Shown here piece by piece: positions 10,359 to 14,670 of a DNA stretch of 24,000 bases. Source of the stretch: Flavobacteriales bacterium 34_180_T64 (GTDB taxonomy: Bacteria > Bacteroidota > Bacteroidia > Flavobacteriales > Flavobacteriaceae). The stretch is taken from positions 155,199 to 179,198 of the forward strand of contig MAAR01000012.1 in assembly GCA_002162765.1 (NCBI GenBank), read 5' to 3'. Positions within the stretch are counted from its first letter, which is position 1. Every line of letters begins with the position of its first letter. The notes below the pieces were generated by a model. That model saw only the letters and a list, made by a program, of their open reading frames with translations, was not told the DNA's origin and made no database searches. The position numbers were made by a program, and so were the translations under genes.

Positions 10359-10904
10359 ATGTATGACAATATAATTGTATCTGAAAGTGACAGACCAATT
10401 TGGCAAATTCCAGTTGCGGCATTTCTATTTACTCTTGCTTTAGCTTTAATTCTGAGAGCTTTTTATCTTAATGATTGGTCTTATCATGATGTAATCCTTT
10501 TAACAGAAGATTTCAAGCATTCTTCTTTGTTAGCAGCAGTTGGTGTTGGGTTTTGTTCTCAAAAACGAATTTATATTGATTTAATCAATTCCAAAATTAA
10601 ATCAGCATTTGAAATAGGCCCTCTTAAGTTTGGAAAATGGCAAACGATGAAGAATCTAGAATACGTATCCGTTTTTCATAGACCTAAAGAAAATGGTAGT
10701 TATGCTTTCGAAGTAAATCTTTGGTATGAAAAGGTTAAACGCATTGAACTTTATGAAAGAGACAACTATTTCGAGGCCTTTAAAATTGGGTTTAATGTAT
10801 CAGAAGGATTAAATATAGACTTATTAGACGCAACTGTTGCACACCAAAGTACGTGGGTAGATAAAGACAAGTGGAAACGAAAAATGAATGATGAAAATTC
10901 CTAA
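10359..10904 (+). CDS. Hypothetical 2-TM membrane protein, bio-locus paralog A
   Basis: 181 aa. Two hydrophobic segments (IPVAAFLFTLALALILRAF; SSLLAAVGVGF), then a soluble domain. Clear paralog of 16413..16892, sharing IDL..K, GKW, EY[VI]SVF, NL[WF]Y, K.IE.Y, AF, SE.LNID[LI]LDAT. Its stop overlaps the bioF start by 14-17 nt. Confidence 0.7.
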   Translation: MYDNIIVSESDRPIWQIPVAAFLFTLALALILRAFYLNDWSYHDVILLTEDFKHSSLLAAVGVGFCSQKRIYIDLINSKIKSAFEIGPLKFGKWQTMKNLEYVSVFHRPKENGSYAFEVNLWYEKVKRIELYERDNYFEAFKIGFNVSEGLNIDLLDATVAHQSTWVDKDKWKRKMNDENS

Positions 10905-12033
10905 AAAGCTACAAACCAAAATTGACCAACGTGTTAAAGAAGATGCACTACGCCAACTTGGTGAACACAGTAATATCGTGGATTTTGCTTCTAACGACTA
11001 TTTAGGATTTTCAAAATCAAGAACCATTTTTAATAAAACTCATGATTATCTTGTTGGACATGATTGTTTGCAGAATGGATCAACCGGTTCTCGCTTATTA
11101 TCCGGAAACCATCCTTTATATACAACTTTAGAAAGCATCCTTTGTGAATTCCATAATAGTGATTCAGCTTTGGTTTTTAATTCTGGTTATGATGCCAATT
11201 TAGGATTCTTTTCTTCGGTACCTCAACGCAGTGATCTCATTTTATATGACGAGTATATTCACGCTTCCATAAGAGATGGGATTCAACTTTCAAATGCAAA
11301 AGCTTATAAGTTTAAGCACAATGATATTGAGCATTTAATCTTACGTCATTCTGAACTTGTTTCAGAATCTCATCAACATATTTATATCGTGACAGAATCC
11401 GTGTTTTCTATGGATGGTGATTCACCTGATTTAAAAGGGTTCGTCGAATTCTGCAATCAAAATGACTGTTTTTTGATTACTGATGAAGCACATTCCGTTG
11501 GAGTTCACGGTAAAAACGGCATCGGTTTACTGCAAGATTTAAATCTAGAAAAAGATGTATTTGCTAGAATTATAACCTTTGGAAAAGCTTTGGGCTCGCA
11601 TGGTGCTGCAATTCTATGTCATGAAGATTTGAAGTCCTACTTAGTCAATTTTGCCCGCTCGTTTATTTATACCACAGCCTTAACTCCTCATACATTAGCA
11701 ACAATTTCGACTGCCTATAATGAAATGTTGATGACCTCTGCATTAGAAAAACTGCAGCAAAACATCAAGTTTTTCAATACTGAAATTAAACGACTCAACC
11801 TAAAACAGTTCTTTATTCAAAGTACTTCGTCTATACAATCATGTGTGTTGTCAGGAAATGAAACTGTGAAAACTATTGCTGAAAAATTACAGGTTCTAAA
11901 TTACAATGTGAAGCCTATTTTATCCCCTACAGTTCCCAAAGGAGAAGAACGCTTACGATTTTGTTTACATTCTTATAATTCTGAGAAAGAAATGACTGAA
12001 GTTTTAACCATGTTAGCTACTTTTGTGTTATAA
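10888..12033 (+). CDS. bioF: 8-amino-7-oxononanoate synthase
   Basis: 381 aa class-II aminotransferase-like. GSTGSRLLSGN, IVTESVFSMDGD, ITDEAHSVG and the PLP-lysine context TFGKALGSHGAAI. Start could be the second ATG at 10891. Carries an in-frame copy of the 31-nt hairpin element at 11344-11374. Confidence 0.9.
   Translation: MMKIPKKLQTKIDQRVKEDALRQLGEHSNIVDFASNDYLGFSKSRTIFNKTHDYLVGHDCLQNGSTGSRLLSGNHPLYTTLESILCEFHNSDSALVFNSGYDANLGFFSSVPQRSDLILYDEYIHASIRDGIQLSNAKAYKFKHNDIEHLILRHSELVSESHQHIYIVTESVFSMDGDSPDLKGFVEFCNQNDCFLITDEAHSVGVHGKNGIGLLQDLNLEKDVFARIITFGKALGSHGAAILCHEDLKSYLVNFARSFIYTTALTPHTLATISTAYNEMLMTSALEKLQQNIKFFNTEIKRLNLKQFFIQSTSSIQSCVLSGNETVKTIAEKLQVLNYNVKPILSPTVPKGEERLRFCLHSYNSEKEMTEVLTMLATFVL
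11344..11374 (+). repeat. 31-nt hairpin repeat, copy 1 (inside bioF, in frame)
   Basis: CGTCATTCTGAACTTGTTTCAGAATCTCATC. Stem ATTCTGAA/TTCAGAAT (11348-11355 / 11361-11368), loop CTTGT. Translated in the bioF frame as RHSELVSESH. Confidence 0.85.
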
Positions 12034-12420: not shown

Positions 12421-13029
12421 ATGAAGCGCATATTTGTAACTGGTATTTCTACAGATGTTGGTAAAACTATTGCTTGTGCAATACTTACAGAAGCCCTTAA
12501 AGCGGATTACTGGAAGCCTATACAAGCTGGAGAATTAGAATCTTGTGACACAAAAAGAGTTCAGCAATTAGTGGCAAACAAAATTTCAAAATTTCATCAA
12601 AATTCATATGCATTACATACTCCTATGAGTCCTCATGCGGCGGCAGATATTGATGGTATTTCGATTGATTTAAAATCTATTAAACCGCCAAAAACTAAAA
12701 ACCACTTGATTATTGAAGGTGCAGGCGGATTATTGGTACCAATAAATGACACTCAAACAGTTTTGGATATAATGGAACCTAATTCAAAAGTGATTGTCGT
12801 TTCAAGACACTATTTAGGTAGTATAAACCATACCCTTTTAACGGTTAACCTTCTTAAAGAAAAAGGTTTTGACGTGTCAATTATTTTTAGTGGTGATGAA
12901 CACGAAACAACAGAAGATATAATTACAAAAATGACCAACGTGCCAATTATTGGCCGTATAAATGAAGAGCCTTACTTCGATAAAAATGTTGTTAAGGAAT
13001 ATGCAGAATTATTCAAAGAAATGTTATAA
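12421..13029 (+). CDS. bioD: Dethiobiotin synthetase
   Basis: 202 aa. P-loop VTGISTDVGKT, EGAGGLLVP motif, size and context. Confidence 0.9.
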   Translation: MKRIFVTGISTDVGKTIACAILTEALKADYWKPIQAGELESCDTKRVQQLVANKISKFHQNSYALHTPMSPHAAADIDGISIDLKSIKPPKTKNHLIIEGAGGLLVPINDTQTVLDIMEPNSKVIVVSRHYLGSINHTLLTVNLLKEKGFDVSIIFSGDEHETTEDIITKMTNVPIIGRINEEPYFDKNVVKEYAELFKEML

Positions 13030-13030
13030 T

Positions 13031-13061
13031 CGTCACACTGAACTTGTTTCAGTGTCGCATC
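13031..13061 (+). repeat. 31-nt hairpin repeat, copy 2
   Basis: CGTCACACTGAACTTGTTTCAGTGTCGCATC. Stem ACACTGAA/TTCAGTGT (13035-13042 / 13048-13055), loop CTTGT. Begins 1 nt after the bioD stop. Confidence 0.85.
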
Positions 13062-13068
13062 ATAATTT

Positions 13069-13347
13069 ATGAAATCTAGTTATGTTTACATATTAACCAA
13101 TCCATATAGAACTACATTTTATATTGGAGTAACAGACAATTTACATAAAAGATTAGAAGAACATTACGATGAAACTGCTTCAAAATTTACTAAAAAATAC
13201 AACATTAAAGATTTGATTTATTTTGAAAATTTTACTGAAATAGAACAGGCGATTGCAAGAGAAAAACAATTGAAAAATTGGCATAAAGCATGGAAATTGA
13301 ATTTAATTAAAACATTAAATCCAACTTTAAAAACTTTAGATTATTAA
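13069..13347 (+). CDS. GIY-YIG nuclease-family small protein (COG2827/UPF0213-like)
   Basis: 92 aa. YVYILTN...FYIGVTDNLHKRLEEH...FTKKY...LIYFE...AIAREKQLKNW matches the GIY / YIG / R / E signature order of the small stand-alone GIY-YIG proteins. Confidence 0.9.
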   Translation: MKSSYVYILTNPYRTTFYIGVTDNLHKRLEEHYDETASKFTKKYNIKDLIYFENFTEIEQAIAREKQLKNWHKAWKLNLIKTLNPTLKTLDY

Positions 13348-13362
13348 ATTTACAATACAAAT

Positions 13363-13393
13363 AATGAGATGCTGAAACAAGTTCAGCATGACG
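13363..13393 (-). repeat. 31-nt hairpin repeat, copy 3 (inverted)
   Basis: Reverse complement reads CGTCATGCTGAACTTGTTTCAGCATCTCATT. Stem ATGCTGAA/TTCAGCAT (13369-13376 / 13382-13389). It supplies the ATG used by the ORF track as the bioA start. Confidence 0.85.
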
Positions 13394-13404
13394 AACGACC
13401 AACA

Positions 13405-14670
13405 ATGACATTACAAGAGAGAGATAAAAAACACCTCTGGCATCCCTTGACGCAACATAAATTGCATCCAGATCATATTGCAATCACAAAAGCTAAAGGA
13501 TGCATGTTGACTGATGAAAACGGGAGATCCTATATTGATGCTATCGCTTCTTGGTACACTTCAATGTATGGGCATTGCAATTCGTATATCACTTCTCAGG
13601 TTACTGAACAAATGCAATCTCTGGATCAAATTGTTTTCAGTGGATTTACACATGAGCCCGCCATTCAATTGAGTGAAGCGCTTATTAAAATACTCCCTGA
13701 AAATCAAAATAAAATTTTCTTTAGTGATAATGGTTCAACTAGTGTTGAGATTGGAATAAAAATGGCATTGCAATTTCATTTCAACAATCATGAAAAGAGA
13801 AATACTTTAATTGCTTTTGAAGATGGGTTTCATGGGGACACATTCGGAGCCATGAGTGTTTCCGGATTGTCCGTTTATAATGGCCCTTTTGAAGACTATT
13901 TTTTAGATGTTAAACGGATTCCTACACCTAATGGAAAGAATCATGATTTTATTTTAGATGCGTTAAAATCCATAACTGAATCTCACAAAGTGGCAGGTTT
14001 CATTTATGAGCCTTTAGTTCAAGGTGCGGCGGCAATGAAAATGCATAATACCGAAGGATTAGATTTAATATTGAAATTTTGTAAAGACCATAAAATCATT
14101 ACTGTTGCTGATGAAGTTATGACAGGATTTGGTAAAACTGGCCGTAATTTTGCATCGGATTATATGTCGAATAAACCTGATATTATATGCTTGAGTAAGT
14201 CGTTAACAGCTGGATTATTACCAATGGCAATTACGTCCTGTTCTCAAGAAATTTACGAAGCTTTTTATAGTGATGATATAAGTAAAGGATTGTTTCATGG
14301 GCACACCTACTCTGCTAATCCATTGGCTTGTAGAGCAGCAATAGCAGGCATTGAATTATTACAATCTGAAGAAATTCAAGAAAACATCAAACGTATTATA
14401 GCATCTCATCGCAGGTTCGATGAACGCATAAAAAACCATTCGAAAGTAAAATCAACACGTCAAACAGGAATTATTTTCGCATTAGATTTAAACATTGAAA
14501 TGGAGCGCTATGGAAATTTACGAGACAAACTCTTCAATTTCTTTATGAACAATGGCGTGTTTTTAAGGCCACTTGGAAATACAATCTATATTCTAGCGCC
14601 TTATGTGATTAGTGAAACTGAATTGAAAAAAGTGTATGCGGTTATTGAAGAGGCTTTAAATACCTTCTAA
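13405..14670 (+). CDS. bioA: Adenosylmethionine-8-amino-7-oxononanoate aminotransferase
   Basis: Class-III aminotransferase. LWHPLTQH near the N-terminus, DEVMTGFGKTG, and the PLP-lysine context ICLSKSLTAG. I place the start at ATG 13405 (MTLQERDKKHLWHP). The track start at 13369 adds MLKQVQHDERPT, which is simply the translated hairpin repeat. Confidence 0.9.
   Translation: MTLQERDKKHLWHPLTQHKLHPDHIAITKAKGCMLTDENGRSYIDAIASWYTSMYGHCNSYITSQVTEQMQSLDQIVFSGFTHEPAIQLSEALIKILPENQNKIFFSDNGSTSVEIGIKMALQFHFNNHEKRNTLIAFEDGFHGDTFGAMSVSGLSVYNGPFEDYFLDVKRIPTPNGKNHDFILDALKSITESHKVAGFIYEPLVQGAAAMKMHNTEGLDLILKFCKDHKIITVADEVMTGFGKTGRNFASDYMSNKPDIICLSKSLTAGLLPMAITSCSQEIYEAFYSDDISKGLFHGHTYSANPLACRAAIAGIELLQSEEIQENIKRIIASHRRFDERIKNHSKVKSTRQTGIIFALDLNIEMERYGNLRDKLFNFFMNNGVFLRPLGNTIYILAPYVISETELKKVYAVIEEALNTF

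Follow-up and report, generated by a model that had tools for sequence, protein, structure and literature searches.

The window analysed here, a stretch of 24,000 nucleotides from the Flavobacteriales bacterium 34_180_T64, contains a biotin biosynthetic operon in which bioF, a DUF2007 gene, bioD, a gene for a 92-amino-acid GIY-YIG protein and bioA follow each other (Table 1). The bioF reading frame encodes an intact class I/II aminotransferase of 381 amino acids (Pfam E = 1e-39) whose database twin carries the name 8-amino-7-oxononanoate synthase; its AlphaFold model has a pLDDT of 85.7 and superimposes on E. coli BioF with a TM score of about 0.8. An ORF of 181 amino acids (10359-10904, plus strand) lies between a GNAT gene and bioF, with a 17-nt overlap with the bioF start. 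It has no Pfam or NCBIfam match and is absent from the two closest relatives described below, in which bioF directly follows the GNAT gene.

Table 1. Coordinates of the operon genes and hairpin copies, numbered by position in the window
Feature	Position	Strand	Basis
bioF (8-amino-7-oxononanoate synthase), host of c1	10888..12033	+	Pfam, named relative, structure model
Hairpin copy c1, inside bioF	11344..11376	+	Covariance-model match, 55.5 bits
bioD, upstream of the cassette	12421..13029	+	ORF and Pfam
Hairpin copy c2, left cassette end	13031..13063	+	54.5 bits; pattern match 13027-13063
92-aa single-domain GIY-YIG gene (Ssn-like)	13069..13347	+	Pfam GIY-YIG, E = 1e-14
Hairpin copy c3, right cassette end	13361..13393	-	55.8 bits; pattern match 13361-13397
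bioA, downstream of the cassette	13405..14670	+	ORF and Pfam; start by alignment to L085

A hairpin inside bioF and a nuclease cassette between bioD and bioA

The hairpin copy within bioF (c1) is a 33-nt element with the sequence CGTCATTCTGAACTTGTTTCAGAATCTCATCAA. It comprises an unpaired CGTC tag (11344-11347), an 8-bp stem (ATTCTGAA/TTCAGAAT; arms 11348-11355 and 11361-11368), the 5-nt loop CTTGT (11356-11360) and a conserved tail (CTCATCAA), and it folds as single-stranded DNA with -5.3 kcal/mol (z = -2.8). Because codon 153 of bioF begins at 11344, c1 reads RHSELVSESHQ (R153-Q163), free of stop codons and frameshifts; judging from the intact frame, it would be translated within BioF.

We searched the window for further copies with a 27-nt pattern and up to three mismatches, using 100 shuffles as the control. 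Two further matches were found, against 0.00 expected in the shuffles, one at either end of the GIY-YIG gene. Copy c2 (stem ACACTGAA/TTCAGTGT; CGTC tag 13031-13034) begins 2 nt past the bioD stop codon, and c3 (stem ATGCTGAA/TTCAGCAT; CGTC tag 13393-13390 on the minus strand) is inverted relative to it; the two copies form inverted ends around a gene that sits 1.7 kb downstream of c1. The stems of the three copies differ from each other by compensatory paired changes. The bioA ORF predicted mechanically starts within c3 (13369-13404, MLKQVQHDERPT), which gives it a spurious N-terminal extension (MLKQVQHD...); bioA itself probably begins with the ATG at 13405, which lines up with the bioA start of the relative L085, and MLKQVQHD-like peptides in annotations are likely to be repeat artefacts.

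Pfam profiles identify only the GIY-YIG domain in the 92-residue protein, NCBIfam profiles find nothing specific, and the best PDB match is the UPF0213 protein EF2693 (E = 0.002). A counterpart is provided by the Ssn nucleases, single-domain GIY-YIG proteins of about 94 amino acids; these recognise hairpin repeats and cleave single-stranded DNA immediately 5' of the repeat (Chenal 2025, PMC11893778). In N. meningitidis, this repeat (NTS; CGTCATTCCCGCGMAVGCGGGAATCYRG) is found on both sides of the gene for the 94-residue SsnA, and 42% of the Ssn homologues have such repeats on both flanks (PMC11893778).

In Algibacter and Tenacibaculum, the place between bioD and bioA is likewise taken by orthologues of the window nuclease (79-89% identity), and the arrangement hairpin, nuclease gene, inverted hairpin is also present in the related loci (designated by L numbers) L002, L004, L008, L009, L016, L021, L059, L081 and L083; inside the operon, the nuclease gene occurs in 8 of the 80 genome loci. 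Each end of the cassette, left and right, has its own stem variant, and these variants are kept across genera. L016 contains the same left and right ends with the cassette between the DUF2007 gene and bioD rather than between bioD and bioA, and since the whole cassette is thus held at another junction, it can be argued to move as a unit. A homing endonuclease aimed at the bioD-bioA junction was considered because the nuclease is both highly conserved and patchy in its presence; this possibility is not favoured, given that the protein has no DNA-binding domain and that L016 carries the cassette at a different junction.

The bioF linker in related genomes

A search yielded 8000 relatives of BioF, and we retrieved 80 bioF loci from Flavobacteriaceae genomes. 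The two closest relatives, L085 (BioF 80% identical) and L086 (71%), have the same synteny; all three hairpins and the GIY-YIG gene are absent there and bioD overlaps bioA, and the corresponding bioF linkers (KTVLQRINCEED and KALIDRLHVDNS, respectively) do not fold. Since both relatives lack the cassette as well as the bioF copy, the distribution is most simply read as a gain of the cassette and of c1 in the lineage of the window.

In the structure model, the residues specified by c1 form the end of a helix (147-156) and the loop that follows it (157-164), in front of a strand (165-170); model confidence is reduced at R153-Q163 (pLDDT about 65). The linker of 20 amino acids is inside the natural range of the enzyme family: it is two codons longer than those of L085 and L086, three codons longer than that of E. 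coli BioF, and needs no gap when it is aligned with E. coli KBL. An earlier note on this DNA had described c1 as an in-frame copy of the repeat flanking the GIY-YIG gene, and both points hold; as the note had also suggested, c1 lies in the variable stretch that joins the HND motif to the strand bearing the next motif, here VTESVFSMDGD. It had also called for an alignment of orthologues that would distinguish an insertion of ten codons from a replacement, and here the result is a replacement: about 12 linker codons are exchanged in the alignment with L085 and L086, for a net gain of only two, and there is no clean 10-codon insertion. Hence, c1 is no clean extra segment relative to the orthologues devoid of a hairpin; since the linker is just two codons longer than those of the nearest relatives, c1 takes the place of a helix end and a loop.

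An identical or near-identical forward element occupies the same position of bioF, to the codon, in L001 (Algibacter), L002 (Flaviramulus), L037 (a Winogradskyella MAG), L049 (Tenacibaculum) and L070 (Asprobacillus); L016, a Bacteroidia MAG, also has it, with another hairpin nested in the loop. Five other Flavobacteriaceae genomes (three named genera and two MAGs) share 28-33 of the 33 nt with the window in bioF, and L001 matches it at all 33. All 11 third codon positions of the element agree between the window and L001, as they do in several pairs, while in the rest of bioF the frequency of third-position matches at conserved residues is about 0.52 (P of about 7e-4 versus the element). Because all third positions match here and only about one half do so elsewhere, conservation operates at the level of the DNA and not of the peptide; the element is conserved as nucleotides in the otherwise most variable part of BioF.

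These data bear on the view that the segment is ordinary BioF coding sequence, whose likeness to the repeat arose by chance or through the shared descent of a peptide. The length of the linker, its gapless alignment with KBL and the invariance of R153 in an alignment of 20 sequences are all compatible with native sequence. However, shuffled sequence is expected to yield no pattern match, identity of 33/33 nt across genera stands against about 52% at synonymous sites elsewhere, the nearest relatives carry unrelated, non-folding sequence at this position, and the same element is present on at least 120 unrelated contigs. Our tests contradict this view, which we find scarcely credible. The earlier note had stated that a peptide shared by ordinary descent, with synonymous variation and no such repeats elsewhere, would argue against an inserted element; we find no synonymous variation, and further copies lie close by.

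With the exception of L070, the forward bioF copies share one stem variant (ATT/AAT) that is missing from the intergenic copies of the same genomes, a pattern that is explained better by long vertical inheritance under selection than by new insertions made again and again. The opposite orientation is found at the same site as well. In L007, a reversed element (GATAAGATGCTGAAACGAGTTCAGCATGAC) encodes DKMLKRVQHD and matches the reverse complement at 28 of 30 positions, decayed reverse versions are present in the linkers of L047, L043 and L019, and the linkers of the nearest relatives look, from their sequences, like a further decay of this reverse type. From the sequences, we infer that a forward allele is a reverse allele whose last 15 nt were swapped for a 33-nt forward copy; such an exchange would account for the six codons by which forward alleles are longer than reverse alleles (e.g., L001 versus L007). 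A plain inversion does not connect the two types, since the L007 element inverted in place would have the wrong frame and the wrong length.

Other linkers carry decayed forward copies (L010, L040, L013 and L036, among others), or a second family of dispersed palindromes with the core GAGCGCAGTCGA (L006, L054, L075, L003 and L025), of which 27 copies occur in the loci, 17 of them outside of the operon. Further variants (L041, L062, L068) are specific for Flavobacterium. Members of the GAGCGCAGTCGA-core family also lie within coding spans at a second site of bioF in L059 (around 10840) and in bioD of L056 (around 11366), and the bioF linkers of L073 and L076, both from Flavobacterium, consist of short tandem repeats (CCGCAAC about four times; CTCGAAA about three times). 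When mapped onto a BioF tree that was built without the linker, the linker types are spread over the tree without forming groups, with four cases in which sister taxa have different types. In 15 of 85 cases, the linker ranks among the most stable 5% of the 45-nt windows of its own gene, where about four are expected. The bioF linker is thus a site that has been re-used, either by repeated insertion or by long retention with renewal.

Small palindromes of a different type are nested in hairpin loops at several places: in L016 (2446-2509 and 6099-6151), in the bioF linker of L009, in L036 (14138-14195 and 12297-12348) and in L001 (4887-4938). The presence of such nested palindromes in several copies suggests that additional hairpins land preferentially in the loops of existing ones.

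Covariation, clustering and dispersal of the hairpin family

We built a covariance model from 33 copies of the related loci. In this alignment, 98.5% of the cells pair and 26 cells are changed on both sides, a level reached by none of 500 shuffles. The C that follows the stem (column 30, which is free of the selection pattern) is present in at least 90% of the 33 copies, and GTC precedes the stem ([CT]GTCA) in about 31 of 41 copies that were chosen without a flank constraint. In Ssn repeats, the three bases in front of the palindrome govern cutting and the C behind it governs binding, being the position on which binding by SsnA depends most (PMC11893778).

The compensatory stem changes also fit an RNA helix, and c1 and c2 are positioned on the transcribed sense strand; moreover, an RNA role has been suggested for REPs that lie downstream of ORFs (Di Nocera 2013, PMC3733652). 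The hairpin might accordingly be viewed mainly as an RNA structure of the operon transcript, which could for example stabilise the mRNA, provide a processing site or cause translation to pause in bioF. We consider this highly improbable. A search of the window against Rfam at gathering thresholds matched no family, and a scan of the plus strand for terminators detected no terminator-like site at c1 and no T-run 3' of the hairpin. The bioF site carries the element in either orientation, and the unpaired CGTC tag and the C behind the stem are features for DNA recognition by SsnA, a protein that does not bind RNA (PMC11893778).

Applied to the 85 loci (1.58 Mb), the covariance model yielded 61 matches, 51 of which scored at least 30 bits. 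The span from bioF to bioA, which makes up 19% of the sequence, contains 45 of these 51 matches and is about 32-fold denser in them, and hairpin copies are found at every junction of the operon. Such clustering is not predicted by a model of purely selfish passengers. It is compatible with a scenario in which the hairpins serve a function in the biotin operon of the Flavobacteriaceae, where they would have been domesticated along with the nuclease and where selection at the DNA level would maintain the bioF copy; a possible role would be to mark the locus so that recombination of single-stranded DNA is controlled there, as the NTS-gene-NTS arrangement does for Neisseria transformation. Besides the density and the occupation of every junction, the position-specific stem variants conserved across genera, the identity of the nuclease (79-89%) where that of BioF is about 60-66%, and the frozen nucleotide sequence of the bioF copy argue for domestication. 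Yet L085 and L086 run the same operon without any of these elements, most loci have no nuclease gene in it, many bioF copies have decayed freely and members of the family are widespread in places far from any bio gene. Furthermore, it is a known property of Ssn-type repeats that they cluster around the nuclease gene (PMC11893778). We therefore regard domestication as decidedly unlikely.

The dispersal is seen in a metagenome scan, which detected the family on at least 120 contigs; no bio genes lie near the hairpin on the contigs listed. Other in-frame hosts with Pfam support are genes for a class I aminoacyl-tRNA synthetase, a solute-binding protein, TatD, a type III DNA methylase and the C-terminal linker of SecA, and in-frame carriage is accordingly rare but general, as has been reported for other CGTC REPs. 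The metagenomic class I aminoacyl-tRNA synthetase gene (L135, 2-2035) has two in-frame copies, and a TatD hydrolase gene (L200, 7734-8624) has a forward-plus-reverse pair of hairpins (RHSEFISESYKEILKQVQDD). A regulatory site of the form TGAAC-N3-GTTCA, the operator of BioQ-like biotin regulators, was also considered; this candidate was rejected in view of the contigs without bio genes on which the family resides and of the nearest relatives, which lack it.

NTS-like inverted pairs (GTCATTCCTGCGAAGGCAGGAATC) are present at the bioD-bioA junction of L005, L006, L011, L019 and L060 and, in a more decayed form, of L003; they look like gene-less derivatives of the cassette. In these six spacers, about 25-40 nt separate the two hairpins and there is no nuclease gene. 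The bioD-bioA spacers of four Flavobacterium loci (L041, L056, L062 and L076) have long AT-rich inverted arms (AGAATAGAAAATAGA ... TCTATTTTCTATTCT) with a conserved CTTATCTTTGCAAAAA core.

A probable tolerated passenger and its relation to known repeat systems

We consider it probable that the bioF segment is a passenger hairpin of the Ssn type, which was seeded from the local cassette or its family, is tolerated in a helix end and loop of natural length, and is kept or renewed by a process that acts on DNA. In this proposal, c1, which is a CGTC-tagged palindromic repeat, would belong to the Ssn-related-motif (SRM) type, a class partnered with small single-domain GIY-YIG nucleases, and would have arrived, or have been renewed, by the process through which this class spreads. 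That process probably operates on hairpins in single-stranded DNA and would favour places where a hairpin already exists; we know of no transposition mechanism for the CGTC/Ssn repeat class. Rather than adding ten codons, c1 may have overwritten a decayed copy of the opposite orientation. It could persist because RHSELVSESHQ would merely re-form a helix end together with a variable loop, a change that BioF can be expected to tolerate, and any influence of c1 on the mRNA would be a side effect.

A bolder idea, which we find rather doubtful, treats the whole biotin operon of the Flavobacteriaceae, with the linker of bioF, as a long-lived "nest" of Ssn-type hairpins. Newcomers would land preferentially beside the residents or within them, also in their loops, and repeat DNA of either orientation would thereby rewrite a stretch of the enzyme over and over; the intact copies would be selected as DNA because the pair of nuclease and hairpin benefits the locus, for instance by controlling single-stranded DNA recombination.

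The novelty that the earlier note had assumed holds only in part: publications already cover the repeat class and the nuclease that partners it as well as in-frame copies within genes, while the bioF case itself appears to be new. The same appears to apply to the AT-rich variant, which the published pattern misses, to the re-use of one linker in both orientations with nesting, and to the concentration of hairpins in the biotin operon of the Flavobacteriaceae. Our literature searches on GIY-YIG together with bioF, or on Flavobacteria together with hairpins, returned nothing relevant, and we found no paper on the bioF case, the AT-rich variant, the re-use of the linker or the concentration in the operon. 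Collectively, the data probably extend the newly described system of Ssn nucleases and hairpins, with an AT-rich hairpin variant, to marine Flavobacteriaceae. Over 87 loci, a single enzyme linker is found in the intact forward, intact reverse, nested, decayed and absent states, and this series constitutes a natural data set on how hairpins spread and are absorbed by proteins. Annotators should be aware of the repeat origin of peptides like RHSELVSESH or MLKQVQHD when they meet them in proteins of Bacteroidota.

The arrangement invites comparison with several known systems. GTAG REPs are associated with RAYT, a HUH tyrosine transposase resembling those of IS200/IS605. As in the REP/RAYT system, a single enzyme gene lies here between inverted hairpin repeats, and gene-less copies and dimers are dispersed as well; in contrast, the tag is CGTC instead of GTAG, and the enzyme is a GIY-YIG nuclease instead of a HUH tyrosine transposase.

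The palindromic elements of Rickettsia (RPEs), in work by Ogata and Claverie from 2000-2003, reportedly are palindromic repeats that reside in frame in genes for functional proteins and are tolerated in loops. RPE-1, the best known of them, is far longer, and its copies add residues. The bioF copy in the window likewise stands in frame in an intact gene without a stop codon, but unlike RPE-1 it replaces native or older-repeat sequence with a net gain of only two codons; furthermore, its host is free-living and not obligately intracellular. The comparison with RPEs drawn in the earlier note turns out to be closer than an analogy, since RPE-4 and RPE-6 have been assigned to the superfamily of CGTC-tagged REPs (PMC3733652) to which the window element also conforms.

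CGTC-tagged REPs have stems of 8-9 bp and loops of 4-5 nt and are known from five phyla that include the Bacteroidetes; intragenic in-frame copies are documented, among others in tRNA synthetase genes (PMC3733652). The window element, with its unpaired CGTC tag, 8-bp stem and 5-nt loop, has every structural feature that defines the superfamily. Inverted pairs, which are common among these REPs, are seen at the bioD-bioA junction, and the family is dispersed over the metagenome contigs. Di Nocera (2013) knew of no associated enzyme gene, which distinguishes these REPs from the case described here, and noted recurrence at the same site only once, in recB of Xanthomonas; bioF is not among the decorated genes named in the main text of that paper (PMC3733652).

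The arrangement in the window and the Ssn system have the same composition of parts. The element CGTCATTCTGAACTTGTTTCAGAATCTCAT flanks the gene for a GIY-YIG protein of 92 amino acids as NTS flanks that for SsnA, both elements consist of a CGTCAT 5' flank, a palindrome and a following C, inverted hairpins stand on both sides of the gene, and the repeats cluster in its vicinity. Candidate catalytic residues of the window protein (Y7, Y18 and E65) correspond to the essential Y6, Y17 and E64 of the N. meningitidis enzyme (PMC11893778). The differences concern host, setting and stem. Here, the host is a marine Flavobacteriales bacterium with a predicted nuclease, and the main text of the report on the Ssn nucleases does not mention Bacteroidota or Flavobacteria (PMC11893778). 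The cassette resides within a biosynthetic operon and one of the three window copies lies in a coding frame, whereas only 2% of the NTS copies are intragenic (PMC11893778). Owing to their AT-rich stems (CTGAAC...TTTCAG), none of the three window copies matches the degenerate pattern that was published for SRMs, while one L006 copy at the bioD-bioA junction does match it.
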